In this document: positions 1-64,000 of the stretch, piece after piece
Numbering within the stretch: position 1 is the stretch's first letter
Layout of the letters: every line of letters starts with the position of its first letter
Assembly: GCA_008632985.1 (NCBI GenBank)
Contig: QPGO01000042.1
Span: 372,001 to 436,000, forward strand
DNA length: 64,000 bases
Source: Psammoneis japonica
Taxonomy: Eukaryota
Direction: 5' to 3'
Translations under genes and position numbers: made by a program
The notes under the pieces: model-generated
The model's input: the letters and a program-made list of their open reading frames with translations, nothing else
What the model was told of the DNA's origin: nothing
Databases searched by the model: none

Positions 1-178
1 GAGCAAAGACCATGATTCTGACACCCTTGACGAGGAAAATTGTCAGTTTGAAAAAATGACGCGCAGTCATTCTGAGGAATGACTTGCACCGCAAGAGGAG
101 TCTTGCGCTCTGCTGGACATTGGGAAGCCCAGAAAAAGGGCCAAAGTAATTCACACTAGTCCAGCAGTCGTCGCCCAT

Positions 179-3100
179 GTGAATGCTTCATTGGGTGAGG
201 CGAAAAACAAGCCTCCACGCATTCTCCTCGACAGCGGAACATCGTCAACCACAATTTTGCGCAAATTCACGCGGAAACTCAGAACAAAAACATCCGCCAC
301 CAAACTCTGGGAAACCAAAGGAGGGCTCTTCACGACTGATGGTCGATGTAAGATCCAATTCTCCTTGCCCGAATTTGACAAACATGAGATGATTGAAACA
401 ACGGCACATGTTGACAACTCCCCTTCTTCTTCGAGTCATTGTGACATGATCATGGGACGCGACTTAATGTCAAGTCTTGGGGACAACATTGGACTTCTCG
501 AATGAAGAGATTAAATGGGGAAGATGCAACTGCTCCCATGAAGAATGTTGACACACTCTTCGATGCCGATGTTTTTAAGTTGATTGCCGATCACATTGAG
601 GAATCTCATGCAGTGATTGGTCTTGATGACAGGGTCAATCGGATCCTTGACTCAGACTGTCACGCTGCAAACCTCAATGATGTGACCGCAGCAGCCACTC
701 ATCTAACTCCTGAAGAGCAGAAGCAGCTGAACTTCCTCTTAAAAAGATTTGAAAACCTTTTCGATGGTTCTCTGGGCAAGTGGACCGGGAAACCGGTGGA
801 TTTAAAGTTGAAATCGGGCATGAGTCCGTGTCGTGCCAAACCATTTCCCGCACCACAAGCCTTGGAGGCGACCACTCGCAAAGAGGTTGAAAGACTGTGC
901 AAGTTGAAAGTCTCAAGAAAAACAAACTGTTCTGAATGGGCGGCTCCAACCTTTGTTCAACCCAAGAAAAATGGCAGAGTTCGGTTCTTGTCCGACTTTC
1001 GTGAGCCAAGTGAGAGGTCAATTCGTGCTCCGTTTCCTCTGCCCAATGTTCAGGATGTGCTGCAGAAGCTCGAAGGCTTCATGTGTGCAACGTCCCTGGA
1101 TTTAAACATGGGACACTGTCACATCGAATTGACGCCGCGCGCACGTCACTTGTGCACGATCGTCATGCCTTGGGGCAAATGTGAGTGCTGTGGACTCCCG
1201 ATGGGAATCTGTGGAGCTCCAGATGTTTTCCAAGAGCACATGAGTGAGCTCATGGCAGGTCTGGAGTTCGTCAGAACTCACATTGACGACATGTTGTGTC
1301 TTGCAAAAGGCGATTTTCAAGACCACCTCAAGAAGCTTGAAACGGTGTTCTTGCACCTGGAACAAGCCGGATTGAAGGTCAACGCCGAGAAGCCCTTTTT
1401 CGCCAAACCCGAAGCAGACCATCCAGGCTTTCATGTCACCCGCAAGGGCATCAGCCCAATTCCAAAAAAAACAGAAGCGATTCACGCGATCGCAACTCCT
1501 GAAACTCGCAAGGAATTGCGGCGCTTTGTCGGTGTGATCAACTGCTGTCGAGACATGTGGCCTCGACGATCTCATGTTTCAGCTCCTTCAGCCAAACTCA
1601 CTTCTACCCAAGTAAAGTGGCAATGGACCGAAACAGAACAAAAAGCCTTCGAAAACATGAAGCGCATCATCTCCAAAGATGTGCTGTCATCATACCCGAA
1701 TTTTAACGCACCCTTTGAGATGTGTGCCGATGCCAGTAATTCTCAATTGGGGGCGGTTGTTACTCAGAAAAACCGACCAATTGCCTTCTACAGCCGCAAG
1801 CTGAATGGAGCGCAAACGCGTTATGCTACAACAGAAAAAGAACTATTGTCCATAGTGGAGACGTTAAAAGAGTTCCGCAATATACTGTTTGGCCAACAGA
1901 TAAATATATATACGGATCACAAAAATCTCACACACAAAAATTTCACAACGGACAGAGTCATGCGTTGGCGTCTAATAAAATAGAAGAATACAGTCCCAAA
2001 ATAATATACCTTGAGGGCAAGGCAAATATTGTCGCAGATGCGATTAGCCGACTTACTATGAAGAAAATAGAACCTATGGAAACCCTCAGCACAGAAGAGC
2101 TAGCTGAAAAGGTCCTACCAAAATCCTACGACAATGTCTTTCCGTTAAATTACAAAGTTCTTGATTATGAACAAAAACGGGACAAAGACATTCTCTCCCA
2201 ATTGTCAAATAAGACGTTTCATACGAAGACTTTTCGTGGAGGCGAGCGAGACCGGTTGCTCATATGTCATAAGGATAAAATTGTCGTCCCGAGGACGTTA
2301 CAAAAGGCAGTGATAGATTGGTATCATACGTACCTTCTTCACCCTGGCATAAATCGAACAGAAGAAACAATCTCACAACACCTATGGTGGTCCACCTTAC
2401 GTGAAGACATACGAAAATACGTGTCGAGATGTGAGACGTGCCAAAAATTCAAAAAGAAACACAAGAAATATGGACATTTACCTCCTAAGTGCGCAGAATC
2501 CGCACCATGGGAACGACTGTGTGTGGACCTTATTGGGCCATACAAAATACGTCGTAAGGGAAAGAAAAAACCCCCAGTCCTGAAATGCTCAACTATGATC
2601 GATCCAGCAACCGGATGGTTTGAAGTTGTGGAAATCCCAAATGAGGAGTCCATGACTGCAGCTGGACTGCTAGAACGAACATGGTTGAGTGGATGTCCTT
2701 GGCCATCGTCAATTGCATGTGACCGTGGAAGTGAGTTCATCGGACACCAATTTAGAGAAATGGTGCAAGATGATTGTGGCATTGAAGTCAAGCCTGTGGC
2801 TGCACGAAATCCACAAGCAAACGCAATTGTTGAACGCGTGCATCAAGCACTGGGGAACATGCTCCGTGCATTTGATTTGCAACATGCACCTCTAGATGCT
2901 GAGGATCCTTTCACTGGAGTGCTGTCAGCGGCAGTGTTTGCGGTGCGTTCCACGTGTCACACCACTGCGCAAGCTGCACCAGGTCAACTGGTCTTCAACA
3001 GAGACATGACATTTGACGTCCAACATGTCGCAGACTGGAAATTGATCCAGCAGCGAAAACAAGAAATCACAAATAAAAATGACGCTCGAGAGAATGCTCG

Positions 3101-3287
3101 ACGTGCTCCTTGCACGTGCAGAGCAGGAGAAAAGACACTGCTCGAGAAAGACTCGCAAAAATTAGAACAGCCCTGTGTTGGACCGCATGCAATGACAACG
3201 GTGCATGCCAATGGCACAGCACAGATCAAACGCGGTGACGTCATTGACACTGTCAACATTCGTCGAACAATGCCGTTTGACGACTGA
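179..3287 (+). mobile_element. Ty3/Gypsy LTR retrotransposon pol (protease-RT-RNase H-integrase), frameshifted and TA-hypermutated; 5' part lies outside the window
   Basis: Protease ILLDSGT; RT WAAPTFVQPKKNGRVRFLSDFR, LPMG and a degenerate YxDD (THIDD); RNase H DAS..LGAV, YATTEKELLSIV, YTDHKNL; integrase HPG..C..C, CVDLIGP, DRGSEF, NAIVERVH. The PR-RT-RH-INT order is Gypsy. Frame breaks near 490 and 1975. Confidence 0.95.
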
Positions 3288-3300
3288 CTCTAATGTGCAA

Positions 3301-3707
3301 TTGGGGAGGCGAGTGCAACATGCGTTGTCATGCACGCATTGTGCGTGCGTGTCCATGTGTCAAATAAAAGCACATTTCAATCGCACGTCAATCGTGGGTT
3401 CGTACGAAGCACAGATCAGTCACACAGAAGTGATCGGATGTCGAGAATCGCAAATGCGATCGTACGATGATGTTGACATCTTGTGTGTCAACATCAATCG
3501 TGTCCGGACAATCTGTCATCACGATCACATTCTCCGAAAGGCCTTTTGTCTGCAGGAGCAGTGCAAAAGGTTCAGGCTGTTGAGAACCCGTTCGGAGAAA
3601 CCCAAAATGATTGCGTGGAAATGATTCTCATAATTTTCACCTTTTGAACTTCGTTCTACTTTCGTTTGCACTCGTTCTTCGAGCATGGTGCACATGGTTG
3701 CATTGCA
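3301..3707 (+). mobile_element. Polypurine tract (3303-3313) and putative 3' LTR (~3314-3707) of the Gypsy element
   Basis: GGGGAGGCGAG directly after the integrase stop, followed by TG. Candidate end ...TGCATTGCA at 3707, after which CpG density drops. Confidence 0.55.
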
Positions 3708-6243
3708 GAAACTGAAGCTCTTGTGCTTTGAAGCATCATTTTTTGAACAACTTCATGCATGATTGCATTTTGGTGCTCTTCTGGCAGCATGTGTGGTGCT
3801 GACACACTGGCCCAAGCTCTGCCTTGTTAATTGTTGCTCAAAAGCTGGTCAAACAACACAGCCACACAAAACTTTTGCCAGCAGCTTCTTGTCTCAAAGC
3901 TGCTCTCAAGTTCATGTTGGTGCAAACATCATCGTTGGAAAACTGGAGACAATTTTCTGAAAACAGCGCTGTTTCTCAGCACCAACCTGCTGAGAAAAGC
4001 ACCAACAGCTGTTTTTGTTGGCCATGACAAATCAAGGGCAAGTCTTCATCACAAAAAAGCAGGTGCATTTAAAAGAGAGATGCTGGCTTCATGACAAGGA
4101 GCAAGACTTTTGCAGGCAACAATTTTGCCTCCAGCTGCTGTGTGACTGTCAAGAGTTTCTTGTCACTTGCTTCCCACATGCTCTGTCAGCCAAGAGCACA
4201 AGTTGGAAATGATTGTCACACCCCCATCATGTGGCTGTGCACATGTGAGTCAAACAATCCCTGCCACTTGTGGCATTTGCAAGAGATGGCTGGCAACCCT
4301 TGTGTTGTCAAAATTTGGTGATTGCAAGACATGAAATGGCAGATTTCTTGATTGCTGCAAATGCTCTCAGGGATGCTGTGGTGTGAAGAATCTTCCATGA
4401 AGCCAAGCAGTGCTTCTTGCAATGTAAAAGCAGAAGAAAGCAGCAAAAAATGATTCTTTTTTTTGCTTTTTTGGGTTGCAGGCCACAACAGGCTGTCTTC
4501 ACCCCCACCAAAGCTGCCAGCACCCTGGCTCCATGCTGCAGCTGCTGCTGTCACAAAAGCAATTGTGCACTGCCCTGTTGCTTGGCTTTGTTGATGCACC
4601 CATCTGGCCACTGCCCAGCTCAACATCATGACAATTTCCAGCTTCTGAGACTCAAGAAGCATGAGAGAGCAAGAATGTCATTTGCCAAAGAGCAGAGTCA
4701 CTTTGATGCTGCACAAGGGCAGTGTGCCATGCAGCAGCACCACTTTGCCAACTCATCCTCTTTTGTTGTTTTGGGTTGGTGCAGCACCATTTGTTGGAAA
4801 AGTTTCTCACAAAGTGTTGTCAGGCCCACACCCAGCACTTTGCAAAAGAGCAAAGAAAAATGATGGCTGCTTTGCAGTGTGTGGAAATGCAGGGATGCCA
4901 AAGCTGGCTGCTGTCTCTCACCATCATTTTGTGCACAAAAAACACAAATGGCTTGTAGTTCACACAACCGTTGCACACACAGTGCAAGGAGGTGGTGAAC
5001 ACATCATTGAGATGACAACACGCAATGAATTTGGCCAGGGCTGTCTTTCAGCTCTTGCTTGTTTGTGTTTTGGGTGCTTGTTTCCAGGGAAAAGGTTGGC
5101 ACAGAAATCAGCTGGGCAAGTGCAAATGTGGAGAGAGATCAGCATCTCATGCTGCCACCAAGCCAAGCAGTCTGCCTTGTTTGACAACTGAGACCTGGAC
5201 CCACTCCTGGATTTTTGGGTGTGCAGCAACAGTGCAAGCACATTTCAGGATGTGCCCCAATGTGATGTGTGCACACACCATGCTTCCAGCCCCTGAACTC
5301 ACTCTCAGAGAGAGGGAGCTCTGCACAACCACTCTTTGACTGTGCAAAAGGCCAGCAAGCAAAAAGTTGTCTGATGTTTCTTGTTGTCCAGATGTTTCTT
5401 GCTTGCTGCCAGGGTGAAAAAAAAGGCAGGTGCACAATTTTGGACACAAGAGTGCACAAATTCCAGAGAGCCATGATTTCTCATGCTGCTGCTGAGCTGG
5501 GTTGACAACCAAACCTTGTCAGGTCCATGCCTGGATCTGGGCACACACCTTCACAGCATGCTTGTTTGGGTGGCACACCACTTTTTTGACCTCACTCTGC
5601 ACACACAATGATGTGACAGCATCATGGCATGTGCTGGTTTGGTGCCCAGCTTGTTCGCCATGAGAAGCCAGCTGGGCACATGGGGGAACATTGTCACAAG
5701 AAAAGAACAAGAGGGTGCCTGCGCTGCACATGCTGCTGTGATGGCTGCTGTCCACCTTGCACCAAGCTGGGCCTGGGTGCTGGCCACATCTCATGCAGCT
5801 TCCATGGCAGTGCAGGAAAATGGCTGTGATCCACACCAGTCCATCTGGAGGCCAGCTGTTGCTGCACCTTCTTGCAGAGGAGGGGGCAAGGGAACCCCCC
5901 TTCCCCCCCCCCCCCCCCCCACACACACACACAACACATGAGCACAAGTGCCGGCGCCGACAGCGTGCTGGTGGAAGAGGTGGAGGGCCTTTCAACCACC
6001 CATTTTTGTTGCAAGAACAACAAAAACTTGTGGCCTTGCTCTCTTTGAGAAGACCTCAGAGAGGACTTCAGAACGCGGTGGGGCCCTGACATCCACAGCC
6101 CCCACAAGACTTGCTGCCGGCATTGCTGCAAGTGAGCGGCAGCAGTTTGCCATCTGCTGAAGGACATGCGCGCCAATCCTTGCTTGCTTGCCTTGCTTCA
6201 CCCATCACAATCACCATCCACAGCCCCCACATGAGACTTGCCA

Positions 6244-8078
6244 CCAGCAAAAAACCAAATTGAGTCCTCATGACTGAACTGAGCATTTGTCCAACCCAAT
6301 TGTTGAGTCGATCAACAAATGAAATGATGAAAAAAAACAGGAATCAATCTGTGCTTGTTTCTGCAAAAATCTTCAATGGCAGCTGCTTTGGACCATGTGC
6401 TTGGATTTGGGTGCTTCGCTGTTCTCTGGCAGCCCGTTGCCATCGAACATGGTCGTTTGCATTTTTGAACACAAAAACAAGATTCAACAATCCTCTCTGA
6501 GACTTGCACCTGACATCACACAACAATTTTGTTAACACGCAAATGCAACATTCCACATTTTGAAACTTCTGAATTTGATGCCAACATTCCAACCTTTCAC
6601 CCACCACAATGATCGTTTCGTTGTTGGTCATTCCTTCCCACACAGAGAAGTCAGCAAGTGCAACGTCGTCCAAGTCTCCCACTTTCCTCATCAACTTCCA
6701 CCCACTGCGCTTTGTGGACAGTGTCTTTCTCTTGAACCGACAGCAACAACAAGCATCAGCTCCTCCAGGACATGGTGAAGAGGGGAGATTGCCTGAAGGA
6801 GCATCAAAGGAGACAACTGGAGAAGCTGAAGCAAGGCATGGGACATGGGATTGATGTGTCAGTCCATGTCCCAGCAAGATCTGTTTTAAATCAAGCTGCA
6901 CAGAACTGACCCCTGTGACACAATGGCTCATGACTGGGTGTCACATCCACAATGCAAAAAGTCAAGGATGCACTTGTTGGATGTTGCTTTGAATGGAAAA
7001 AGTGCACTCTGTGGATGCAAGCCAGCATCTGATCCACAGAATCCATGTGCCAAACTTGCTCTCAAAGTGTTGCAAAGGCTTCATGAAGCATGTGTGCCTT
7101 GCTGCATCTCTGCGTTGCCTCATGCCGGCATGACAGGAGAGATGCTCAGACATTCTTTGATGCCTTGAGGAGTTGGAGCTTCTTCCACGAGTGCATGGAG
7201 GTCCCGTGCCTTCAACAACGCTCAATGGCCATGGCTTTGTGTTGATTTAACAGGAAGCTGGTGGACACTGCTGCAAATGCATTGACAACTCGGCGCCCAT
7301 TTGACACCCTGCATTCAGCACGGCAAATGAAAACAACAAAGACAACGACAACAAAAAAGACACCAGCGAGATTGCTTCAGAATGAAGCAGCTGCATGGCA
7401 TCAAAAAACACTTCAAAATGCATTTGCTGTGACACTTGCAGAAGCCTGATGCACTGCAGCAAATGTGCTGTGAGAAGATGCCGTGCCGAGAACCTCTTGG
7501 CGCACTGCACTGGCAAGCAGATGACATTGTTTGATCTGCTGATGATGGGTGCAAAGAGTCATTGCACGAAAAAGGTGGTGCAACTTTTAAAGCCAGATTC
7601 AGCTGATCCCAAGCTCACTTCAAAACAAACTGTCATCCAACAGGTCTGCCAGTGAAAAACCAAATTGATTCCTTGTTTTTGCCAATTGTCGAGTGGCTGT
7701 TTTTCGCCTCACATTGGCTGGAGCTGACCATTTCTTCGCATTTCCTGTCCTTTTTCATCATCTCAAAATGTGGGATGTCACGCGCATGTGTTGACAAAGC
7801 TGTCACATGACATCAGGTGAGAATTGTTGAATCTTGTGCTCGCGTTCCAAAAACGCAAACAATGACCATGTTCGACGGCAACGGCCGCCCGAGAACAGCG
7901 AACCACCCAAATCCAAGCACATGGTCCGAAGCAGCTGCCATTGAAGATTCTCATAAAAACAAGTGCAGCTTGATTCCTGTTTTTTTTTCATCATTTTATT
8001 TGTCGATCGATTCAACAATTGGGTCGGACAAGGGCTCAGTTCAGTCATAAGGACTCAATTCGGTTTTTTTTTACTGGT
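6244..8078. repeat. ~260-bp inverted repeat pair (6244-~6500 / ~7815-8078) enclosing ~1.3 kb; possible non-autonomous TIR element
   Basis: The arms are reverse complements, also visible as near-identical ORFs MTELS..RSTN.MMKK on opposite strands. 6131-6220 also recurs directly at 8095-8185. Confidence 0.8.
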
Positions 8079-8403: not shown

Positions 8404-11400
8404 ATGGGCAAGCCCAAGGAGGATCGTTCTGGCTGGGTAGCGGTAGCTCCCGAATTTGCAGAGTCGACTGCCGAGGGACCCGCAATCCGTCCTGCGCAAT
8501 CGGCGTATCAGATCTTTCAAAAGGATGTGACGCCGGCAGTACGGGAGGAAGTATACAGCAAGTGCGGAGGAAAGTTTGAGCTAGCTGAATTCACCAAAGC
8601 AATCCATGCACGATGGAATGCCTTGGATGTTGTTCGTAAGGCTCGATATGAGGATCTGGCTCGCGAAGATGCTGCACGTTTTGCCAAGGAAAGCCACCAA
8701 GCCGACATTGAGCAGCTTGAACGACAGAATCGACGAAGGCAAGAACGGGAGGAGCTCATTCTAGATGATGGAACACAAGGACGAAGCACCAGAAGGAGTA
8801 GGAAGAAGCAGAAGAAGAAACAGGAGCGCCTCGAGCGAAAGAAAAAGCAGTCAAACCAGCAAGACGGATCTTCGTCTGATCCTCAGACAGACCCGGACTT
8901 TCACGACACCGGAGACTCTTATGACAGTGATGACTCCTCTTCCTATGACTCGGATGATAGCGACCGTCCTAAAAAGAAGAAGGTGGCTCCCCGGCAAGTG
9001 AGTCAAGCTGTACTTGAACGACGAGAAAAGGCGCGACAAGAGAAGGAAGAGAAAGAGAATTACATTGCGCAACGACAGGACGAGCTCCGACTTGATCGTG
9101 CGGCTCAGGCGAAACGACGACTGGATTTCCTCCTCAAACAGAGTGATATTTTTAGCCACTTTGGCAAGGTTGAAGAGGATAGAGCACGCCTTGTCAGCAA
9201 GAAACCGATTCGACGCGCCGAATCATCGGTCGAAACTGGGACTTCTCGACGTGCTGATTGCACGGAAGACGCTGAAGGAGTTGACGCGGAGGATATGGAT
9301 CAGGGGGATGAGCATAAAGCCACTTTTCTTACCGCACAACCGTCGACTTTAAGCCATGGAAAAATGCGTGAGTATCAGTTGGAGGGTCTCAACTGGATGA
9401 TCAGGCTTCAGGAAAACGGGGTTAATGGCATTCTAGCCGACGAAATGGGATTAGGCAAGTGTCTAGCAGAACAGAATCACGCAACCAATTCTGAATCAAC
9501 ACTCCTCACGTCACATGTCTTTTTTTTGTTTCGTAGGCAAAACGTTACAGTCAATTTCTATTCTTGTATACATGATGGAATACCAGAGTTGCAATGGACC
9601 GCACTTAATCGTCGTCCGAAATCTACGTTATCGAATTGGATGGGAGAGCTCGAACGGTGGGCCCCAACTCTAACTGCGGTAAAGTTCCACGGAAGTAAGG
9701 AGGAACGCACTGACATTGCGGAGAACGTTCTGCAGCCTGGGCAACGCGACGAAGACCGAGCTTGGCACGTATGTGTCACCACATATGAGGTTTGCAATAT
9801 CGACAAGAACGTGCTAAACAAATTTGCTTGGTCATATCTCATCATTGACGAAGCCCATCGTCTGAAGAACGAGGCATCTACGTTCTCGCAGACAATCAGG
9901 ACATATGAAACCCGATACCGTCTCTTACTTACGGGTACTCCGCTTCAGAATAATCTCCATGAGTTGTGGGCTCTCCTCAACTTCCTTGTGCCTGACGTCT
10001 TTGCTAGTTCGGAGCAGTTTGACGAATGGTTCAATCTAGACATTGATGATGCGATGAAAAGAATAAGCTCATTTCTCAGCTGCACAAGATTTTGAGACCC
10101 TTCATGTTGCGGCGTCTAAAAGTGGATGTCGAGAAGAGTCTTCCTCCAAAGCGCGAGACAATTCTTTTCACTGGAATGTCTGCAATGCAAAAGAAACTGT
10201 ACAAGGATATTTTGTTAAGAGACATCGACATGATTCAAGGAGGCGGAGGTTCAGGAAGCCGCACTGCGATTCTAAATATTGTCATGCAGCTTAGGAAATG
10301 TGCCGGACATCCCTACTTGTTCCCTGGAGTGGAAGATCGGTCGCTTCCTCCCCTTGGTGAGCACGTTGTGCAAAGTAGCGGAAAGATGGTCCTATTGGAT
10401 AAGCTGCTGAAGCGTCTGAAGGAAAGAGGACACCGAGTCTTGCTTTTCACTCAAATGACAAGAATCTTGGATATTCTGGAGGACTACATGATTATGAGAC
10501 AGTTTCAATATTGCAGGATCGATGGAAACACGAGTTACGAACTCCGAGAAGACAGCATTGATTCTTTCAACGCTCCAGATTCAAAGAAATTCATCTTTCT
10601 ACTTTCTACCCGTGCCGGTGGCCTTGGCATCAATCTCCAAACAGCTGATGTCGTCATTCACTTCGATTCAGATTGGAACCCGCAAGCCGACTTGCAAGCG
10701 CAGGATCGTGCTCATAGGTATGAAGGTTCATTGGTTCTTTCCGTGTCCTCGAATGTCGCCTGAACTGACTGAACGTACTATTCTTGCTGTTGTAGGATCG
10801 GACAAACGAAGGAAGTTCAAGTGTTTCGGTTCGTTACGGAGCACACAATTGAAGAAAAGATCGTTGAGCGTGCCCAGCAGAAATTGAAGCTCGATGCAAT
10901 GGTTGTGCAACAGGGACGCTTAAAGGATAAGGATAAGCTCTCCACGTCACAGCTGCTGGAGGCTGTGCGATTTGGCGCTGACAAGGTGTTCAAAACAAAA
11001 GACTCGTCCATCACTGACGATGACATTGACATGATTTTGGATGCGGGTGAACGAAAGACGCAGGAGATCAACGAAAAGTTGAAGAATGCCGAGAAAGGGG
11101 ATATGTTGGATTTCAAACTCGATGGCGGTATCTCAGCACAGACCTTTGAAGGCGTCGACTACTCGGGTAACGCCCTTGCGCAAGCGAAAGCGGAGCAAGC
11201 TCAGGCCCAACTGCTTGGCATGCTCGACATTGGAAAACGCGAACGCAGAACCGTTGCCAACTACAACGAAAACCAACTGTATCAGCAACAAATTCTTGCT
11301 CTACAAGGCGGCGCGGTGAAGGAGCGAAAGAAAAAGCCCAAGCGACTACCCAAGGGGTTGCGACTTCCCCGAATGGAAGAGTGGCAAATGTATGACAGGG

Positions 11401-19644: not shown

Positions 19645-19974
19645 CAAGTCCGCACACTTTTATCTTGGTTTTGCCAGTACTAATATAATGTTAAAAGAGG
19701 GTGATTGTTGAAGCCTTAACATACATAGTGTCTACTAATAGCTAGGATTCGGACACAAACACACATCTCTCTGTCTCTAGCTTTAGATCGCGCATCAACT
19801 AAAACAAACTTTCTACAAAACTCAGGAGATCGGACCCTCATATGCTAAAGAAGTAGTCATCCATTCGATCGATCTCATCGCGAGAAGTTCAAAGTAGATC
19901 AACTGCCTGCTGCCCGTGTGATTGAATGTGCGCGTTCCGTCGTCAGCACGCATTCTGAATTCCCGCGCCAACGA

Positions 19975-20350
19975 GCGGTTCAGCACGCGGACCATTGGAG
20001 CCAAACTGGCTGCCAATTCCAACTGATTGGGCCCCGTAAACATCTCGGACGGCATGATTTCTCCAAAAAACAAAACCAACGTGACAGAAAGGATCACAGC
20101 CACGTGGCTTCCTGCTGGCGAGTCAAAAAAGAGTGGAAGGGCTTCGTTGGCAATCGAATTCAAGAGCAAGAGTGATGCGAGTTGCAGGTGATGTTGCTTG
20201 ACAATCGGCAGCAGTCTCTGGGCCAGATGCTTTTCCTGGGGACTCGCCGCCACTCAAATCTTGATGTGAAGCAACAAAGGATTGATGCTGAGAAGTCCCA
20301 TGGTCAAGCCAGCAGCCAAGGCAGCCATCATGACACAGACAGCAGCCATT
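19975..20350 (-). pseudogene. CNNM/DUF21 transmembrane-domain gene fragment, frameshifted and TA-depleted
   Basis: AALAAGLTMGLLSI..., HHLQLASLLLLNSIANEALPLF, VILSVTLVLFFGEIMPS..FTGPNQL match the CNNM/DUF21 consensus. No downstream CBS domains are visible. Confidence 0.8.
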
Positions 20351-20899
20351 GAGGCGCTGCAAATGTAAAGCTGTTTTGTCCTTGTCAGTTGCCTCCTCCT
20401 CCACCAGGCAGCAAGCTCTGCTCCGATGAACATGGAGGAATCTCATCACCCAACATTTTGCACTTGCCAGCAGATTCTTTGTTTTTGTGACACAAAAACA
20501 TTGCACCCACGGATTCCAACAATGCAACAGCATCACGAACATCCTTGTCATCCGCTAAATCAGCATGTTGTGCTCAGGCATTGAATCACTTCGGCGTTGC
20601 ATTTTCTGGCGGCCGATGAACTGAGAATGCAACCAAGTCCACAGCAGCGATTCTGGCAAAAGAGAAGTGCCAATTGGTGGCGGCAATCACAAGTGGAAGC
20701 AGCAAGCAATTCCCAGCTGTTTGCTGCAGCATGAACATGAAACCGGGAGCTCCTCATCATCTTTTCATCACTGCTTGTGTGTGCCATTGGCAGGGGTCTG
20801 TGCCACGCAATGGACTGATGCACATGGACAACAGGGAGGTTGCTCAACAATTCACCTTTTAGAAGACTCTTCAGAATGACACCCAGCATTTTGCGCACA

Positions 20900-21160
20900 A
20901 AACTTGTGGAAAAGGCTTGATTCGATCAGATGCGTCTTTCTCTTCATCGGCCCAAAATGAGATCGCAAGAGAGAATGCAGGAACAGCTTCAGACAAGGGA
21001 TGGCATTCACACAAAAAGCAAAGCTCATGATGCTTGTCAGGATCGGAGCCAAAACCAACTGCCAATGCACAAAGCATCAAGTCCTTTGTTGTGTGGGTTG
21101 CCTTCAACTCGACCAAACGTCTCAAATCTGAGTTGACCGCTTCCATCACTGCCCATCTCA
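20900..21160 (-). pseudogene. Fragment resembling the N-terminus of an MFE-2/MaoC-type enoyl-CoA hydratase 2
   Basis: HTTKDLMLCALAVGFG...LCFLCE.HP...AVPAF resembles YT.RD..LYAL.VG...L.FLYE..P.F...PTF with Tyr replaced by His/Cys. Confidence 0.6.
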
Positions 21161-21678
21161 AGAATGCGCTTCTCTCTCTCTTCTTTGCTTGTCTGCACGA
21201 GAAACGAAAATCGATGACAAACCTTGTTGATCTTGCTGCGATGCCTCAGTGGATCACCTGCCCACAATCTCAAGGAATGGCTCGGCTCATGTCACACCGA
21301 ATGAGGCGCTGACGACAACTTAGTGCACTGGGAGTGTGGGTTAGCTTGTTGCCGGAGTTGCAGGGTGGAAGCGTAGCAGCACTTAAAATTAGATTTTGGG
21401 TTTTGTTTTAGCATGTACGGTAGGCTAGTAGAGTAGAGAGAGGTGCAACGTTCGCAACACCGTTCATGCTAGCTGCACACATGGTCATCGCAACGTTACC
21501 CCCTTGCAGTGACAACAGCGCGCTTTTCATGCTCGCATCGCGCATCGCCTCCAACAGAAAAATGGTGCTAACCTTACCGGTGAACCAACCAAACTCAAAA
21601 CAACAAGAAGACATTGGGTTGCTATCCCGACCTCCTTCTTCCCATCTCTCTTGCCCGACGATTTGAAGAATCTTCATC

Positions 21679-24489: not shown

Positions 24490-27400
24490 CAATTATTGGT
24501 ATTTTTAGTCATTGCCCAACGCCAATGGAGACCAGGACATTAAAAAAACGGGTGACAGCGCGCACGCGCAAAGAAATCCACAAAATTCCGATTCAAAACA
24601 CAACCAACCGTCACCTCCATGACCGTCAGTTTGTTGCGTCCGTCTCATCCCGTAGTCTGCATTGTTGCTGTATAACACATCATAACTCCACTTCATCCGC
24701 TATGGAGATAAAAGGCTGCTGATTACTGGCTTATCACTTTCTCCATAAAGATGGAATGTCGTTTGATGACTTATGCACCATTTTTCGGCACGGAGCGACA
24801 GTGCGTGGCAGGTAGAGACGACTCGTTTATTGTATGTTGACACCAACTGGCTTGTCTCGGAAATGTAGCAATCATATCAATGGACTTATCATTGGGAAGA
24901 GGCAGCAGTGTAAGTGGCAACCGTGTGCCTTGTTGCGTGCCAGCAGTTGTGTGTGTCTGCACTTGATCAATTGATCAACCAGCAATTGATTCACCTGTTG
25001 CTTTGGATACACTTCTTTGTTATCCCACGTAAGACATATGGAGTGGGCTTTGTTAAGAATTCAGACGTTGCCATGGATCAGAAGACTGTGTTTCTAAAGA
25101 ATCTTCCGTGTCAATGATGGCGCACTACTTGTTGCAGACAATGGTTTCATGGATGGCACACGTGACGTTGCAATTCCGGATGGCATATACGGGTGGCATA
25201 TTTCTTGGTTCAAAGCATGAGCATGGAGCAGACAGCGGCTCTTTACTTGGAACCACACTTGGCCGTTCCAACAGCATTGATGATGGCGCACCACTCGGTG
25301 CAGACAATGGATTCATGGATGGCGCACGTGATGGCACATCACTTGGCATTGCGGATGGCATAGGTGATGGTACATTACTTGGCACGGAAGATGAAATTGA
25401 TGATGGTGTAGCACTTTGACTTCAAATGGGGAGAGGAGTGTTGATAGAACCGCTGACCGTTTTATGGATGGTACCTCACTAGGTTTAAATGGTGTTGGAC
25501 GTGTTGCACTAGCAGATGGTGGCATTGGGCATGGTGTAGCCGGTGTTGGGTGTGTTGGACGTGTTGTACCAGTGCATGGCAGTGATCAAGATGATATCCT
25601 TGGACTGGACATTGAATGTATGAGTCGAAGACTTTCGGGTCCAGAACAACGTTCGAAGCGTAGCTCTGGATGGACCGAGTATTTAAAACGGGGCGGAACA
25701 CTAGACGACGTCATGTTTGGACCAACGAAGATCCAAATGACACCGTCTACCACATTGGATTCCTATTTTCTATCGCGCTGTGGTAAGCAATCACCGTGTC
25801 AATATCCCCACAGCAATGGCGTGGTACAAGAGGCGTTTCCTATAAGCCATGCTGCGAATGAATCTTCCAAGACAACGTACGTGGTGGACATTGAAACGTC
25901 AAGGATGGATTTTGCAATTTCCATTATTACAGAATTGGATGCTTTTCGGGATCCATGTGGTTAAATGAAGGAAGATCGATCTTGGTTCTGGGACTGTTGT
26001 GGCTTTGGCAAGGCGCCGGAAAACTCGACGAAGTACGAAGGCAAGGGAATTGACTCGGGCCAACAAGTCGGTGCAGTAGAGAGTAGATAAGACTCGGATG
26101 ATCCTAGTGACAGAATGTTAACAAGTGACAAACACACATGCTAAAGATGGATAGGTTTACTGTCCATGTCTCGGAGCTGTCGGGACATGTTTAACGTGGC
26201 ATCAAGGTCAACTCGACAGTGCCATGCCGTTGAACAATCGTGTGACACATGGCTTTCCAGGCTAATTTTATGCCCAAGCCTACACCATAAATGTGCATTG
26301 TTAATAACTGCTTCTTTTTACTGACAATAAGAGAGTTGTTTTGATCTTGTTGTATCTAACAACCTTGTCACCTGCCATTCTCGTAACCGCTTGATGTTAT
26401 GGAGGCTTTTGACATTTCGGATCTTTCAATCACGTGTTCAATTCGGTACACACTCGACAATTCCAGGGGCATTAAGTTGTTGCGTTTCCTCGCCCGCTCC
26501 AATAAATTCGCCTCGTGCAAGACACAATCAAAACAAGAATATGAAGCCACCAGCAGCCCATGCTCCCACCGGTGCAATCACGGTTTCAATTCCGTACACA
26601 CTCGACAACTCCAGGGCGTTGAGTTGCTGCGTTTCCTCGCCCGCTCCAATAAATTCGCCTCGTGCAAGACACAATCAAAACAAGAATATGAAGCCACCAG
26701 CAGCCCACGCTCCCACCGGTGCAATCACGGATTCAATTCCGTACACACTCGACAATTCCAGGGCGTCGAGTTGTTGCATTTCCTCGCCCGCTCCAACACA
26801 TTTGCCTCATGCAAGACGCAACCGAAACAAGAATATGAAGTTGCTAGCAGCCCACGCTCCCCATCTACGCCATGCCCATTGCCACCCACGCCACCATCTG
26901 CTGGTGCAACACATCCAACGCCGACTGGTGCGCCGCACCCAATGCCAAATGCACCACCATCTGCCAGTGTAACACGTCTAACACCGCCTTGATTGCTGGC
27001 AGTGCACACGCTCCAACCGCCTCGACCAGCGCAGCAGCCACACAGGCTCCCACCGCCACCAGTGCCAGCAGAGTAACCAGGCTACCACTGCCACCAGTGC
27101 CAGCAGCACACAGCACAAGAGCAGGCACCGCAAGAAGATAGAAGGATCCAACCACCTCGATTGCTGGCAGTGCACACGCTCCAACCGCCTCGACCAGTGC
27201 TGGCAGCCACACAGGCTCCCACCTCCACTGGTGCCAGCAGCAACCAGGCTCCCACTACCACCAGTGATGCCGTCCACAAATCCATCAGCTGCACCGACTG
27301 CGCACAACCTCCCAGTCCAACGGTGTGGGTCCACTGACAAGATTGCTTTGTTTCCGAGACAAGCCAATTGGCGTCATCCATCATCTGAAACAAGCAACAC

Positions 27401-28105
27401 ACCAGCAACTGCGTGACTCCATCATCTGTTCCGAGCAGGGCGCTGTCGTCGACACTGTCGGAACCACCAGGTGTGGTCCCAAGTCCATGCTCATACTTTG
27501 AACCAAGCAATGTGCCATCGGTTTCTCACAAAATCACAAGTGTCGACACAGAAGATTCTTTAGAAACGTAGACTTCTGACCCAAGGCAACAAATGAATTC
27601 TTAACAAAGCCCGCTCCACACGTCACACGTGGGACACTTGTGTTAGAAGCAAAAGACAAAACAGGTGATGGTTGCCACTTGCGCCACTGCCTCTTCCTGA
27701 TGGCATGGGTCCACTTGCACGATTCATGTGTTTCCGAGATGTGCCAGTTGGTGTCAACATGCAACAAACGAGTCGTCTCTGCCACATGCCACAACATGCA
27801 CCGTCGCTCTGTGCCGCAAAGCAGTGCATGAGTCATCAACCGATGTTCCTTCTTTCTCGAGAACGTGACACACCAGTGATCGGCAGCCTTTCATTCCCAC
27901 AGCATGTGAAATGGGGTTCTGATGTGTCAAACAGCAACAATGCAGACCACCGGGATGAAACGGACGCAACCAACTGACAGTCATGGTGACGGTTGGTGTT
28001 TTTGAATCGGGAATTTTTGGGATTTCTGTGCGTGTGCGTGCTGTCACCCGTTTTTTAAATGTCCTGGTCTCCATTGCACACAAAGTGCGATGCTAAAGAT
28101 GCCTT
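24490..28105. repeat. Large inverted duplication (arms ~24490-25575 and ~26860-28105) of a degenerate PS/PT-repeat secreted-protein gene and its 3' flank
   Basis: caatggagaccaggacattaaaaaaacgggtgacagc and gctttgttaagaattca occur in both orientations. Relic peptides include PSDVPSRAPSMNP and PPSASATRPTP. Confidence 0.85.
26437..26860 (+). repeat. Tandem repeat, three copies of a ~147-bp unit
   Basis: ttcaatt..gtacacactcgacaa...aaacaagaatatgaag starts at 26437, 26585 and 26732. Confidence 0.9.
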
Positions 28106-28333
28106 TCAGTCGTGCCCGAAACCTGGAGCCAGCCAGCTTTGGCAGAACGCACGCACCATTCCTCCTCCCCTCCTTGCATGGTCTCAGTGGGCAGTTCAAA
28201 ACTGAAGTTACAACATCACATGTCACCTCTCTGCTCATGCTCTTCAGTTCTTTTTTACCCTCTGCATGGACACCTCTTCCCACCCCATGTCTGCAAAAAA
28301 CAATGTTTGCTCTGTGTCATGACAACACACATC

Positions 28334-28593
28334 GGCCTGTTCCAGCTCCAGGTGCTCCGCTTGGGTTCGATTCCCATCATTTGGAAATTTGTGCATTTGG
28401 CGCAATTGACTTTTTCCAAATCCGTTTTTTGCCAAATCGAAGGGTGAGTGTACACTTTGCATGTATTTTTGGTTGTACACTCACCTTTCGATTTTCGAAA
28501 CGATCAAAATTGAAGGAGTTGATTGCGCTAAACTGCGCAGAAAATCGGCCTCTCGCGTGATGAAAAGCAGATCACCTGGAGCTGGAACAGGCC
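28334..28593. mobile_element. 260-bp fold-back / MITE-like element
   Basis: Perfect 21-bp terminal inverted repeat GGCCTGTTCCAGCTCCAGGTG (28334-28354 / 28573-28593). Nested internal inverted repeat aaatcgaagggtgagtgtaca / tgtacactcacctttcgattt. Confidence 0.7.
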
Positions 28594-31500
28594 CATCATG
28601 CTGCTCCTTGTGCACCCCTCCTCTGCTCCTGCAACAAAGCTGTTTCAACACCTGCCCTTGTGCTTTCCCTCGTGTCTCTGCTTCTGCTCTTTGGCTCTTT
28701 CTCAGTTTAAAAACATGGAAGGGACCATGTGGTTCATGATGTGGAGAGAAAAAAAGAAAGATGAGTGAGAAATGACTGCACAACCAAGGAGAGGAGGATG
28801 TCCAACAAGCTTCTTGTGTGCGGTGGTGGTGGCTGTGCAGCTGAAAAAAGAAAGAGACCAACAAGAGCAAACCTGTGGATGAGAATGCTCCAGCTGGAGG
28901 GAGACATTCTGGCGAGGAAAAAGCAAAGATTCTGCCACTTGTTGGGAAGAGAAAGGCAGAGAAGATAGAAAAAAGAGCTGTTGGCTGGCTTCTGGGAGGT
29001 GCCATCTCCCACCCACAATCTTCGACAGTGGGGGCAGGGTTTGTTTGCTCAATTGATCACACCGGAACAAGCAAAACTTCTTGCTGACTGATCTGTTGCT
29101 TCTTAAACTCATGAGAAGTTCAGTCTGCATCAGCTGCTGCCAAGCTTGAAAAGAAGACCACCTCACATGTTCACATGGCAGCAGTGGGAGCAGCACAGAG
29201 CAGCTGGCTTTGTGGCTCGGGGAGCTCCCCAAACCAGGTCTCCAGAGGCAAGCCCTCCAGGGTGGTGCAAAGTGCAAACAGTTGACAGGCATCAGTTGGT
29301 GCCTGTTTTTTTGTTGCCCTTGAGTTTCCTTTGGAGGATTGGACTCTGACATGGTGCCCAAAAGCTCACCAGCACATTCAGCCAGCAGCAGCACCAGTGT
29401 TGTTGTCACTTGGCACACTGCCACACTTCCATGCAAAATTCTTCACAAAAACCTGTCAAGACAAGGCAATGGCGATGCTCCTGTTGTGCCCACGGTTGTT
29501 TTTGGCACCACTTGAGCACCCCTGTTTGCCTGTGCCACACTTCCCACAGCACTGCACTGTGCTGCCATCACTCCCTCCTGTTGTTTTGGGTTCACAGAAG
29601 GCATTGTGTTTGCAGCTCATTTTCAAGGGGTCAACTGTTGTTGAAACAATCTTCACAACCACCACATGCAGTGCTGCATTTCTCCACATGTCACATGACT
29701 TTCTGCTCATGTTCTCATTGCCACTCTGCAACTCCCTGTGGCAGCAGTTTTTTTTTTCAAATGCCACCAGCTGCCAAGTTGACAATGCCAACAACTCAAG
29801 ATGTGGCCTTGTTGTAAAAACACCATTTCAAACACAAAGCTTGCTCAAAAAATGCAAGTGCCTTCCCAGCATGTTGAAGAGCAAATCAACATCCCAAAGT
29901 CAGTTGGCACACCCTGACTTCATGAACCAAGACAGACACATCCTTTGACCCAGCAATGTCAGCTTGAAAGCAACGGCGCAATTCTGTCCACCAGAAAATG
30001 TACATTGTGTTTGCTCAACAATGGTTGATGGCAACAGCATTGACACCACCACTGTTGTCCTCATTGACTGGCTCAAGGGGGGTCATGCTGCTTTCCAAAG
30101 AAGCAACCCTTGATGCGCTGTTTCTTCAAAGAGAGTCACATCCCTGGCATTGCCATGTGCAGCATTTCCTTTGATGGATCATGTGGACAAACACTGTCAG
30201 CATTGCTGCCACCAGAAACCTCTGCTTTGGAGCTTGAAGTGCCAACCTCAGCTCTGTCAACTTTGCCAGCAGCGTGCACAGTTTAGCTCACTTTTTCTCC
30301 CAAGCCACAAAGGCAAATGTGGAAGACATTGCCATTGTGCCACCCGGCACCAAGAAGTTTGCTTGTGCACTGGGGGTCTGATGTGCAAATGTCAGCTTTG
30401 CTTGCACCCATTTTTGCAAGTGCACTGGATCCCAGGAATGTGCTGCAGACTTGACATGGAGAAACCAGGGCATCTGCACCCAGCAGAGCACCTTCCAAAT
30501 TTTCTCAATTTCTGCAAAGAGTCCAGATCAGAATCTCCAACACATCACCCAAGTGGCAACATGGAAAAAGAAGAGTCACAGGATCAAACAGCACATTGCA
30601 CAAAAAAGCCATGCATCAGAATGCTGGCAGCACCACCAAGAAATGCAATGGATCTGGGGCACACTCCAGCTCTGGACAGGACCTCGCAGCACTGGGCTGC
30701 AACAGAATGGTTTTTGATCATCCTCAATGCAGAAGCTGCACACACATCATTTCTGCATGCACTCTTTTACAAAGCTGTTTTGTGTGCTGCCACCATTTTG
30801 GGAAGCTGACAGAGTTTTGTTTCAATCATTTCTGAGAAGAACAAAACCAAGCTGGCTGCATGTTTTGCGACATGCATGAAGAGCACAACTGAGCACACCA
30901 TGAGAAACAACACACACACACTCACCTCAAGTGCACATTGATGACTTGCTCAAGATTGCAAAATTGTGTCTTTTTCCATTGGCAGTCATTGATTGTCATT
31001 TGTTTCCCAGTGACTTGTCACATGTGGTGTCACAACCAGGGTTGGAGAGCAATGAGCAAAGGGGGCACCCCCTCTTTCACAGCAAGAGGGCATCTTTGCC
31101 AGCCCCATGGCTGACAACATGGTGCGACAAAAGCGCCCATCAGCACCATGCTCACAACTCCCAACAGCACTCATGTCATTTCTCTCACCTTGTGAGCTGA
31201 TGTGGAGCCACACCCACTTGTAAAATGGACTCAGAGGTGTCTCCAGGTCCTTTTGAGGTCCAAGAAAAAGAACAAAGAATGCAGTCCACAATGCCTTGTC
31301 AATGCCTTGGCTTGGGTGAAGAAGTTTTCACAATCAACAGAAGCCAAAATGGATTTTTGCCCACATTGTCCTGGCACAACCAGCTTCTTCAAGTCCAAAG
31401 TCAGCAGAGTTGTTTGTGTCACATCATCATTGGCGGCAACACACAACCCTCAAGAACCCCCAGCCAATGCATGGCACTCTCTTTTGACAGCATTGACTGC

Positions 31501-32586
31501 ATTTCCAAGCCTTTCATTGGCAGTCATTGCCTGGGTGCAATGGGTGTGACATGAAATTTGGCAGGGATGCTGGCGGTGCCTCACAACAATGTGAGAAAGT
31601 GTGCTCAACACACACAAGTTCTGCGCGCCATTTTTGCAGCATGTCTCCCCATGCTCAAATCCATGAGCACCTTCCATTGCAAAGAAAAATGAATCTCACT
31701 GTGTAGAAGAAAAAGCTGCTGTGCAATCAAGAGAGAGCAACACTTTGAGATTGGAGTTTGCAGCTTTGTCAGAACAGCCCATGTGTGTCTCCCCCCTCCT
31801 GTGCCCTGCTCCCAACCAGACCAGAGACAGGTGGGCAAGATGACAGATGGGGTTTGGGGCTGACACCAGCACTTTTACAAAGACCAAATTTGCAAGCAGT
31901 CCTTGCACACAAAATGGCACCCAACATCTTTTGAAGGCTGTGGTGGGGCTGAGCACAATTTGCACTGTGGTGTTCGAGCACAAAACATGCCAAATTTTGA
32001 GTTGTGCCTCAGCCACTTTTTGGTTGGGATGCCATTGACTCCTGACCAACCAGCTCACTGTTGTTTTCTCACATTTTGAGGTCATTAAAACCAAACATTT
32101 GAGTGCCAGCTGCTTTTATCTTGCAGCTGTTCACCTGAGTCTGTGCACACAGCATGATGTGGCACTTCTTTCCATTGAGAAATGTCGGGTTCTGTGCACA
32201 GTGTGGCTCATTGTAAACAGTGCACACAACTGGATTTTGTGCTTTTTGCAAGCAGCACTCACTTTCAAACTGGGGCAAACTGGGGACCAAACAACTCAAC
32301 CTCCTTGACTCCACCCCTGACAAGGGCAATCACATGATGCAAAAAGCCCATGCTTTTGCTGTGCTGTTGTTAAAAATTGGTGCCTGACAATGAAAATCTC
32401 TTCAGCTGAAATGTCCTGCATGGTCATTTGCAGCAGAAGCTGCTCAGAGAATGGTCGCTGAGCCTGGGATTGTTGTTTGCCTGAAGTGATCAAGGAACTC
32501 ATTCAATGTCCACAATCAACTTTTCATTTTCCTGCCATTGAGCTTCTTCCTGAGAAAAAATCCCTTTCTTTTTGTTTTTTGCTCAT

Positions 32587-35360: not shown

Positions 35361-35669
35361 CTGGCAACAAAAATCCCAAACGCAGAGAGGCAGACTTTTG
35401 TCAGCAAGCAGCCATGGCTGGGGAAGTCCCCCGATTTTGTCCAGCTGGAATGCATTGGGAGTAAAATCCACTTCCAACAATGGCTCCAGTCCATGTGGAG
35501 CCACTCACCACACATTGACAAGCCTGTGGTGAAGTTGCACTTGCATCCAGTGGCATCTTGCTGCAACAGACTTCCATGTTGAATGTCGATTTCAATGCTC
35601 TTGGTTCAGGCAATTGCACTGACAAACACTCAGACAACATAAATCGTGAGACATGGAAACTCGAAACTG

Positions 35670-41500: not shown

Positions 41501-42581
41501 TCATGTGCAAACTTGTCAAGACAATGCTCTGGATTGTTTTCCAAAACACATTGCAGTGCATCGCAGTGCTGTTGCTGAAAGTGCCGCCCTTCTTTCCAAC
41601 CTCCAGCTGACCGTTTTAAAACTTCTCCACTCTTTTGAAGCATCACAAGGCAATTCACCACAGAAGAGGCAATGCTTGTGCCAACATCTGAGTTGGCTTT
41701 TAGCATTCACCAACTCTAAAATATTCTCTGTGCCATGTCTGAGTTTTGCTGCAAGGCTCATCGCACCCACAAGCAACTCAAGCTGAGTTGCAATGAATGC
41801 TGTGGTGTCTCTTTGAGTTGCCTGTCCTGCAGCAGCACAGGTGGACCTGACAAGGGTGCAGCAAACTGCAAAAACAAAAGCAATCTCTGGCACTTTTTTC
41901 CCATGGAAGTGGCAGGTAGCGTCTGCATGCACTTCTGCGCTGTGCATGCCAAGAATGCTGCCAACAAATCACTTTTCACAAGACGCTCCATGGCATTGTC
42001 GACCGCTGCTCCTGCCTCATTCTGAAGCTTTCCTGCCGGTCCTTGGCATTGCAGCACTTTTTTTTATCATGATGGTCATCAACATGAGCGAGCATGAAGA
42101 AGAGACGGAGTCAATTGGTGAGGAAGACCTGGAGAGCCGCTTGACCGCAATGAGGCGCTGCCGCCAAGCATGACAGCTAACACACCGGTGGAGCCGGCCT
42201 TCAGTTAGGGCCCTACAGAGTACATCGCGCGCATGCACAACGCACAAGGGAAAGGGACGGTTTTGAAAATCGCGGATGCTGTGTCAAAAACAAATGGGCA
42301 AGGGAATAAGAGATCACCACTGACAAGAGAAACATATAACTGCTGTCCTCTGGAGGGAAAAAAGTGGAGTCTATGACTCGATACGCATTGTGTATCTTCT
42401 AAAAATAGGACATGACAGATTATATCACGAGTATTCCAAGCATCCAACCAACCTAGTCTCTTCCCGCTTTACCGAGACATCTACGTAACACCCTCAGGAT
42501 TTCCAAGTCACCCACAACGGCATAATGTAGCGAGCGTATCTCCTCGAAACGTAAAACTGCACACAGAGCCGCAGAATCCAC

Positions 42582-59930: not shown

Positions 59931-60018
59931 TCACGTCACAACGGAAAAAGAGCTTCTGTCCATGGTGGAAACACTTGGGAAATTCCGGAATGCACTGTTT
60001 GGCCAACACATTGACATG
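59931..60018 (+). mobile_element. Gypsy RNase H fragment related to 1821-1910, flanked by an ~83-bp direct repeat (59808-59889 / 60020-60101)
   Basis: HVTTEKELLSMVETLGKFRNALFGQHIDM versus YATTEKELLSIVETLKEFRNILFGQQINI. Confidence 0.85.
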
Positions 60019-60103
60019 TGATCTCCTGCACACTTCAAGCCAAATCCACCTCAATGAAGGTCAAGTGCAGAACAAAAGTCTCCAAGAACATGGAGTGCAT
60101 CTC

Positions 60104-60927: not shown

Positions 60928-60929
60928 TT

Positions 60930-63990: not shown

Positions 63991-64000
63991 TCTGCGAGCC

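Follow-up and report, generated by a model that had tools for sequence, protein, structure and literature searches.

What process removes almost every TA dinucleotide from the reverse transcriptase (RT) domain of a retrotransposon, and does it act on the element alone? This question is raised by a 64,000-nucleotide stretch of the diatom Psammoneis japonica (assembly GCA_008632985.1, contig QPGO01000042.1, positions 372,001 to 436,000 of the forward strand; hereafter the window, whose own numbering we use). The window opens with the 3′ part of a Ty3/Gypsy long terminal repeat (LTR) retrotransposon copy from a high-copy family (1–3700, + strand, cut by the window start). A preliminary description had read its RT domain (502–1680, + strand) as recoded codon by codon at TA-containing codons, and the element as inactivated by missense load. 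We find that TA has been changed to CA or TG on both strands, irrespective of reading frame and well beyond the element, and we consider it probable that the window bears the saturated footprint, in a diatom, of a position-targeted, TpA-specific DNA hypermutation acting on two strands.

The 1179 bp of the RT domain hold 8 TA dinucleotides, against 76.1 expected from base composition, together with 99 CA, 101 TG and a near-normal 56 CG (70.8 expected). In the RT frame (445–1983), the first tyrosine is residue 417, encoded at nt 1693, which bears out the Tyr-free start reported earlier. All seven motifs that had been quoted are present in this frame: REPSERS (nt 1000), GHCHIEL (nt 1111), GKCEC (nt 1174), THIDD (nt 1276), DHPGF (nt 1417), INCCR (nt 1537) and VSAPSAKLT (nt 1576). 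Within THIDD, the catalytic YxDD box reads HIDD (1279–1290, + strand).

Comparison with related proteins identifies what was lost. A protein search returned 1659 relatives, the best with 65% identity, from aquatic metagenomes and from eukaryote contamination of metagenome-assembled genomes. We aligned 40 relatives (49–64% identity) over RT and RNase H and 40 integrase matches over the remainder, and called a column conserved when at least 70% of relatives share its residue. None of the 13 conserved Tyr columns in 445–1690 is kept (now 8 Cys, 3 His, 1 Val and 1 Phe), nor is any of the 7 in a second TA-poor part of pol (4 now Cys), whereas a TA-normal patch between these parts keeps 9 of 11 (Fisher p = 2.7e-6). 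Overall, the 20 lost columns now read 12 Cys, 3 His and 5 other residues. The loss thus removes catalytic and structural tyrosines, including that of the YxDD box. The 40 RT relatives keep 13–19 of 19 Tyr columns; over 16 columns the window keeps 3, and the lowest relative among the 120 RT matches listed keeps 9. Alignment to relatives had been proposed as a check on the preliminary description, and it came out in its favor: Tyr is retained there, and the Cys and His residues of the window are not carried. That lowest relative, the metagenome sequence P0103, has 5 His and 1 Cys at other conserved Tyr columns, and to judge from its sequence may come from a copy that TA hypermutation has partly altered in some other organism.

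Other residues changed in the same direction. Conserved Leu columns in 445–1690 show Leu to Ser (TCA) four times and Leu to Pro (CCA) twice, and Val to Ala recurs in the element, all as previously noted from the motifs; Ile to Val, Ile to Thr or Met, Lys to Glu, Asn to Asp and Thr to Ala are further recurrent changes. Conserved columns are mismatched at 67 of 236 positions in 445–1690 versus 11 of 77 in 1691–1983, and 50 mismatches can each be reached by a single TA to TG or TA to CA step from a codon for the consensus residue. Transitions limited to an ancestral TA can produce 24 of the 67 mismatches in the first TA-poor part and 21 of the 56 in the second, the most of any of 16 dinucleotide models, although these models overlap (AT explains 16 and 10). 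The Pfam RVT_1 score is 42.1 bits in the window versus 80.5–99.9 bits in all four relatives tested.

At the nucleotide level, positions 520–1689 carry 6.0 TA per kb versus 63.3 in 20 relatives, with CG unchanged (47.9 versus 44.4 per kb) and gains of about 16 CA and 35 TG per kb. At position 873 the window reads CA and other copies read TA (read depth 2401 of 2496). The differences from relatives cluster where TA once stood, and the replacement is CA or TG. The loss is blind to codon position: the three codon phases of the TA-poor RT part hold 0, 1.3 and 0.5 TA per 100 codons, compared to 4.35, 7.5 and 7.1 in 20 intact relatives, and 4.2–4.9, 6.3–7.4 and 6.9–7.4 in the TA-normal patch of the element itself. 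Of the proposed codon-by-codon recoding, then, the direction from TA to CA or TG stands and the codon-wise character does not, since loss is equal in the three phases.

The rest of the element shows the same change, with one interruption. Its pol order is that of a Ty3/Gypsy element, collinear with the pol of relatives: a DSG protease motif lies in frame 83–505, RVT_1, RT_RNaseH and RT_RNaseH_2 in frame 445–1983, and Integrase_H2C2 with a weak rve in frame 1740–3287, giving protease, RT, RNase H and integrase in sequence. Positions 1–1690 are TA-poor with intact CpG and hold 12 TA in total, six of them within TTAA. Positions 1691–2599, from RNase H to the integrase zinc-binding domain, form the TA-normal patch (64.9 TA per kb), a point overlooked in the preliminary description. 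Positions 2600–3700, comprising the integrase core, the C-terminus and an LTR-like end, are again TA-poor, with 7.3 TA per kb in 2600–3284.

The element appears from its sequence to be a defunct member of a high-copy Ty3/Gypsy retrotransposon family. Contigs assembled from a public read run reach a summed depth of about 6000–8000 from position 1 to about 4000, versus about 60 for single-copy DNA, which implies a family of dozens of copies or more; of 2931 contig pieces aligned, 599 match at 99% or better, 836 at 95–99% and 1496 at 90–95%. The single open reading frame (ORF) of the relatives' pol aligns across three frames of the window (125–496, 505–1977 and 1980–2882), and other copies have one base fewer near 479–517 and two bases fewer at 1977. 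Because other copies lack those bases, this copy is broken by two frameshifts besides its missense changes; missense load is thus real but is not, as had been supposed, the sole damage. The 3′ end probably lies at about 3700, where repeat depth drops and a single-copy contig begins (3699), and where CG density, 5–9 per 100 bp up to that point, becomes 0 starting at 3701. A 3′ LTR is probably contained within 1–3700.

The preliminary description tied TA loss to the RT or to the element, and this view did not survive inspection of the whole window: the loss runs into the single-copy flank and recurs in five blocks (1–1690, 2600–8000, 19950–21300, 27300–42000 and 54650–64000). These blocks, 1.4–14.7 kb long and totaling 32.5 kb, contain 135 TA; the remaining 31.5 kb contain 1249. 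Observed-to-expected ratios (o/e) in the poor blocks are about 0–0.14 for TA and 1.3–2.0 for CA plus TG, compared to 0.4–0.9 for TA in adjoining blocks, and CA and TG counts are about equal in all five (1656 CA versus 1561 TG in 27300–42000). The flank at 3701–8000 (depth about 58) lacks both TA and CG (TA o/e 0.00–0.08, CG o/e 0.00–0.68, CA plus TG o/e 1.6–2.0), and its single-copy part, 3701–7450, is the most depleted DNA of the window. Stop triplets are correspondingly scarce, at 2.0 TAA and 0.8 TAG per 1000 triplets in poor blocks versus 9.3 and 8.4 in normal blocks, in agreement with the earlier remark that changes to CA or TG make no stops.

The direction of change can be read within the window itself. 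Comparing the window with itself yielded four pairs of paralogous segments, each split between a normal and a poor block. The 35 TA of the normal copies read TG 14 times, CA 14 times, TA three times and something else four times in the poor copies. Dinucleotides other than CG were kept at 64–86%, while CG was kept at 18 of 38 sites and became CA or TG at 19. In one of the two main pairs (27670–28076, − strand, against 24523–24922; 80% identity over 412 columns), the partner's 18 TA read TG at seven sites, CA at seven and other dinucleotides at four, with none kept, and 13 of 18 CG survive. Similarly, the 10 TA of 42272–42462 read CA six times, TG three times and TA once at 34425–34605 (+ strand), and its four CG read CA twice and TG twice. 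Differences between the window and read contigs in the single-copy flank (7 over 2188 bases, 15 over 1509) have the same character: 16 of 22 listed are CG or TA versus CA or TG, or adjacent swaps between CA and TG. Such swaps, seen at 7023/7024 and 7223/7224, are the expected remnant of two independent hits on one ancestral dinucleotide.

These pairs also bear on how the target is chosen. A trigger like that of repeat-induced point mutation (RIP), whereby repeats would be recognized by pairing and mutated at TA instead of CpA, fits the high copy number of the element, and diatoms possess DNMT4 enzymes, related to fungal RID and without an assigned function in the available text of PMC9998398. 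Yet RIP hits both copies of a duplication, and in all four pairs only the poor-block copy is mutated, with the normal-block partners of the two main pairs keeping their 18 and 10 TA. Moreover, the most depleted DNA is single-copy (3.7 kb at depth 58), and the change from A:T to G:C is opposite in direction to RIP. We regard a homology trigger as unlikely. Since one copy per duplicate is hit and a single-copy flank is hit as well, targeting looks positional.

A second alternative dispenses with targeting: a neutral mutation spectrum would remove TA and CG everywhere, the poor blocks would be old unconstrained DNA, and genes would be preserved by selection. The oldest-looking blocks do lack both dinucleotides, and read differences in gene regions include exchanges between TA and TG (3 of the 11 rows listed). 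However, three non-coding stretches of 1.6–2.0 kb in normal blocks retain a TA o/e of 0.63–0.77 and a CG o/e of 0.84–1.06, block edges are sharp, and within the element a 0.9-kb patch has a baseline TA level and is identical to other copies along 119 nt. In the element, about 89% of the expected TA have disappeared with CG still at the level of its relatives, so that TA loss is far more advanced than CpG decay. The element's CpG richness marks it as a young Gypsy copy inserted into an older domain devoid of TA and CG. With TA kept in normal-block non-coding DNA and CpG intact in the element, we exclude a bias acting genome-wide and regard the untargeted account as a whole as unlikely.

The residual TA dinucleotides reveal a context rule. 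The ratio of TA density in poor to normal blocks is 0.60 for TTAA, 0.15 for GTAA and CTAA, 0.10 for CTAG and CTAC, 0.08 for ATAA and GTAC, 0.04 for ATAG, 0.02 for ATAC and 0.011 for ATAT. When each base 3′ of the target A is given its own rate and these are fitted to the four palindromic tetramers, the resulting model has rates of 2.25 for T, 1.28 for C, 1.13 for G and 0.26 for A. It predicts four of the six other classes closely, and GTAA and CTAA are observed about 1.4–1.7-fold below prediction.

We considered whether the pattern might be an artifact, arising where modified bases were miscalled or misassembled, or from a chimeric assembly. With N gaps in the scaffold and a high copy number of the family, a mis-join could account for the TA-normal patch, and the window base at 68, 2588 and 3348 is supported by no aligned contig. 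The changes nevertheless follow a context rule consistently and fall on conserved residues, and independently built contigs (X1) reproduce the TA- and CG-free flank at single-copy depth; we therefore judge an artifact very unlikely as an explanation of the whole. As for the patch, a 119-nt contig of depth 528 is identical to 2040–2158, and the 2-base frameshift at about 1977 falls inside it. Its edges are fairly sharp. The left one has the last TA-type change at 1688 and the first TA at 1693, with a few such changes scattered as far as about 1830; at the right one, TA ends at 2594 and TA-type changes resume at 2643. The patch may have arisen by gene conversion from an unmutated copy, by chimeric assembly across this gapped scaffold, or by patchy targeting.

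Editing of retrotransposon RNA by an ADAR- or ADAT-like adenosine-to-inosine activity, fixed through reverse transcription, would share the 5′ U preference typical of ADARs (cited in the main text of Mettrop et al, bioRxiv 10.64898/2026.01.13.699255, 2026), and the gain in the element does look TG-biased on the sense strand. Tyr went to Cys 12 times and to His three times, where the context model predicts a TG share of 0.60 for Tyr codons and 0.52 overall. But the one-strand, element-only A to G pattern of RNA editing is not what the window contains: sense-strand T to C changes are common (Tyr to His three times, Leu to Ser four times, Leu to Pro twice), the LTR-like end is changed too, and non-retroelement flanks and non-coding duplicates are altered alike, with TG and CA at 14:14 and the same signature throughout the surrounding domain. 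This symmetry, and the involvement of non-coding, non-element DNA, exclude RNA editing in our view, and we find it scarcely credible as the source. Finally, selection against TA in an element that still functions, whether acting on codon choice or RNA stability or to avoid restriction, has nothing beyond the open RT frame in its favor and is negligible, given the loss of invariant catalytic and structural residues including the YxDD tyrosine, a halved RVT_1 score, a pol split over three frames, and a frame-independent depletion that reaches non-coding DNA.

Overall, the changes have one direction, one dinucleotide target, two strands, a context rule and a block structure, and relatives and host genes are unaffected. 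In the targeted hypermutation that we propose, T:A pairs at 5′-TA-3′ would be converted to C:G, yielding TG or CA according to the strand hit. The process would be blind to reading frame and coding status, would spare TTAA, and would far outpace the decay of methylated CpG in that DNA. Position would direct it, to a domain that is silenced or consists of foreign DNA; sequence duplication would not. We infer that it is a genome defense that destroys inserted elements yet creates no stop codons, and that by analogy it would be the same kind of targeted hypermutation as in the chlorarachniophyte Bigelowiella natans. A DNA adenine deaminase of ADAT2/TadA type, the agent suggested for B. natans, is a speculative and somewhat doubtful candidate here.

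A broader reading, which we hold tentatively and with less than even confidence, joins these elements. Diatoms would possess an active, chromatin-domain-directed TpA to TpG/CpA mutator for silenced or invading DNA, possibly a DNA adenine deaminase preferring TAT > TAC ~ TAG >> TAA. This mutator would erase TA within the lifetime of an element, at least about tenfold faster than methyl-CpG decay, and together with CpG decay would drive domains to a TA- and CG-free, nearly stop-free state. Occurrence in both stramenopiles and rhizarians would, if true, make TpA hypermutation an old defense across the stramenopile–alveolate–rhizarian (SAR) group and not a chlorarachniophyte oddity.

Several points weigh against the proposed hypermutation or its details. 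A 0.9-kb unmutated patch in an otherwise saturated element misfits simple domain-wide targeting. The TG bias on the element's sense strand could hint at a strand-dependent component, although the counts are too few to carry it. Foreign origin is shown for the Gypsy copies alone: two such copies sit in poor blocks, and the other approximately 25 kb have no origin recognizable with Pfam, the 45 ORFs of at least 130 amino acids in the other poor blocks giving two sub-threshold chance matches only. The ancestral state of the RT rests on relatives of 49–65% protein identity and a few read rows. All evidence is a footprint in one assembly, and the public run that supplied the confirming reads probably comes from the same sample as the assembly.

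The individual blocks and their surroundings show further features. None of the six ORFs of at least 130 amino acids in the flank at 3701–8000 has a Pfam match; within this flank, a C run followed by a CA microsatellite (5887–5942) marks a point where read contigs break. The short block at 19950–21300 lies between host genes and holds 4 TA in 1351 bp. An ORF for a CNNM transmembrane domain (19822–20250, − strand; Pfam E = 1.7e-12) spans its edge, and the space downstream is insufficient for the remainder of a CNNM gene; the ORF may be part of a host gene overtaken by the hypermutated domain. Direct repeats in tandem, each about 147 bp (copies 91% and 86% identical; 26427–27266), stand just ahead of the largest TA- and CG-depleted block and yield overlapping repeat-derived ORFs on both strands. 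This 14.7-kb block (27300–42000) has 56 TA and 217 CG, and Pfam returned no credible match in it, with one weak hit to ApoLp-III at 17.9 bits (cutoff 36.3). The last block (54650–64000, 42 TA) is likewise depleted of TA and CG and contains a decayed second, related Gypsy-like element, detected by tblastn as fragments (RNase H, RT N-terminal part) at 59725–60012 and 63558–63967 (tblastn, 63581–63967). These fragments adjoin N gaps and short inverted and direct repeats (61242–64000).

Host genes occupy the normal blocks and encode an SNF2/ISWI ATPase, a WD40 protein, an ATG22-type transporter, deoxyhypusine synthase, a leucine-rich repeat (LRR) protein, P5C reductase and an AAA_12 helicase. The deoxyhypusine synthase shares 71–79% identity with named proteins of the diatoms Attheya, Entomoneis, Cylindrotheca, Pseudo-nitzschia, Nitzschia, Seminavis and Fragilariopsis, in keeping with a diatom host. 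Contigs of a further run, X2, skip 9452–9533 and 10715–10792 in the SNF2/ISWI gene, which suggests that X2 behaves like a transcriptome and that the skipped stretches are short introns of 82 and 78 nt. X2 does not cover the element, and we do not take this as evidence of silence.

For annotation, the near-absence of TAA and TAG in such blocks produces long spurious ORFs. In 3701–8000, 27300–42000 and 54650–62700 the scarcity of these triplets yields overlapping ORFs of 130–356 amino acids on both strands, which lack homologues and are a trap for gene callers. Transposon proteins in such DNA are stripped of Tyr and of many Leu and Ile residues, and fall toward or below domain-detection thresholds.

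How does this process compare with known systems? Like fungal RIP, it is a defense-like, dinucleotide-specific transition hypermutation that kills transposons. Unlike ascomycete RIP, which changes C to T at CpA and thereby makes TpA and stops, it destroys TpA and makes no stops, and it strikes only the copy inside the domain where RIP mutates both. In animals, APOBEC3 and ADAR enzymes edit retroelements on one strand of cDNA or RNA during element replication. Retroelements are there, too, inactivated by editing with a neighboring-base preference (5′ U for ADARs), unlike the present case in which both strands and non-element DNA are changed.

Decay of methylated CpG is the other process at work in transposons. 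Diatom transposable elements are CpG-methylated via DNMT5a (PMC9998398, in its available text), which fits the slower CpG decay seen here but not the TA loss. The CG to TG or CA changes of the older blocks, such as the 19 of 38 CG in the paralogous pairs, resemble such decay; the young element, with CpG intact and TA gone, does not. In other hosts CpG decay proceeds without TA loss: the metagenome Gypsy loci L009, L035 and L059 have a CG o/e of 0.12, 0.07 and 0.26, respectively, with a normal TA o/e of 0.59–0.67. Across 80 related metagenome Gypsy loci, no 600-bp window has a TA o/e below 0.15 (median 0.75), a scan that serves as a baseline only because its search patterns (e.g., LDLNMGYY) select intact copies. 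The diatom elements GyDi (Maumus et al, 2009; PMC2806351) likewise have a Ty3/Gypsy-type pol, a likeness by type alone, and the available text of that article does not mention dinucleotides, TpA or hypermutation.

The closest counterpart is B. natans, where a process of probably the same kind has already been described; new here are the diatom host, the context, the targeting and the timing. In the literature we searched, which lay outside subscription journals and the supplements of the B. natans preprint, there is no report of TpA hypermutation in a diatom. TpA-directed hypermutation has so far been reported, on the evidence of that preprint's main text, only in this one chlorarachniophyte and without a known enzyme (2026). 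If our reading is true, it extends the process to a second supergroup lineage, one that is ecologically important and has transformable species, and a search for the enzyme and the targeting signal would become practical. It also adds testable specifics: the sparing of TTAA, the order of rates by 3′ neighbor, targeting by position instead of homology, and TA loss ahead of CpG loss.

According to the main text of the preprint (Mettrop et al, 2026), 231 of 302 nuclear mutations in B. natans mutation-accumulation lines fell in two integrated viral regions. Nearly all of those were A to G or T to C, with every such GC-biased change at TpA, and the rate was about 6e-7 per site per generation, an approximately 1000-fold elevation. 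The targets were integrated nucleocytoplasmic large DNA virus (NCLDV) and virophage DNA, and the mutator was active in only some lines; 124 clusters of 1-kb windows low in TpA and high in CpA plus TpG were found, TpA-depleted coding sequences were enriched in reverse-transcriptase and DDE domains, and an ADAT2-like candidate was proposed. That main text does not contain the words "diatom", "Gypsy" or "retrotransposon". The older DNA of our window shows complete CpG loss besides, and TTAA is spared, while the main text is without "CpG", "TTAA", "flanking", "trinucleotide" or "logo". The B. natans rate came from mutation-accumulation lines, and the diatom case is known as a sequence footprint. 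The host also differs (a stramenopile instead of a rhizarian), as does the target, an LTR retrotransposon with its surrounding domain instead of viral inserts, and TA o/e here is 0.00–0.14, near saturation, versus 0.45 in the B. natans NCLDV region. Within these limits of source and material, the two cases agree in their TpA target, in TpG and CpA as outcomes on both strands, in the kilobase scale of the affected regions, in TpA depletion matched by CpA plus TpG enrichment, and in the presence of reverse-transcriptase sequences among the depleted DNA.

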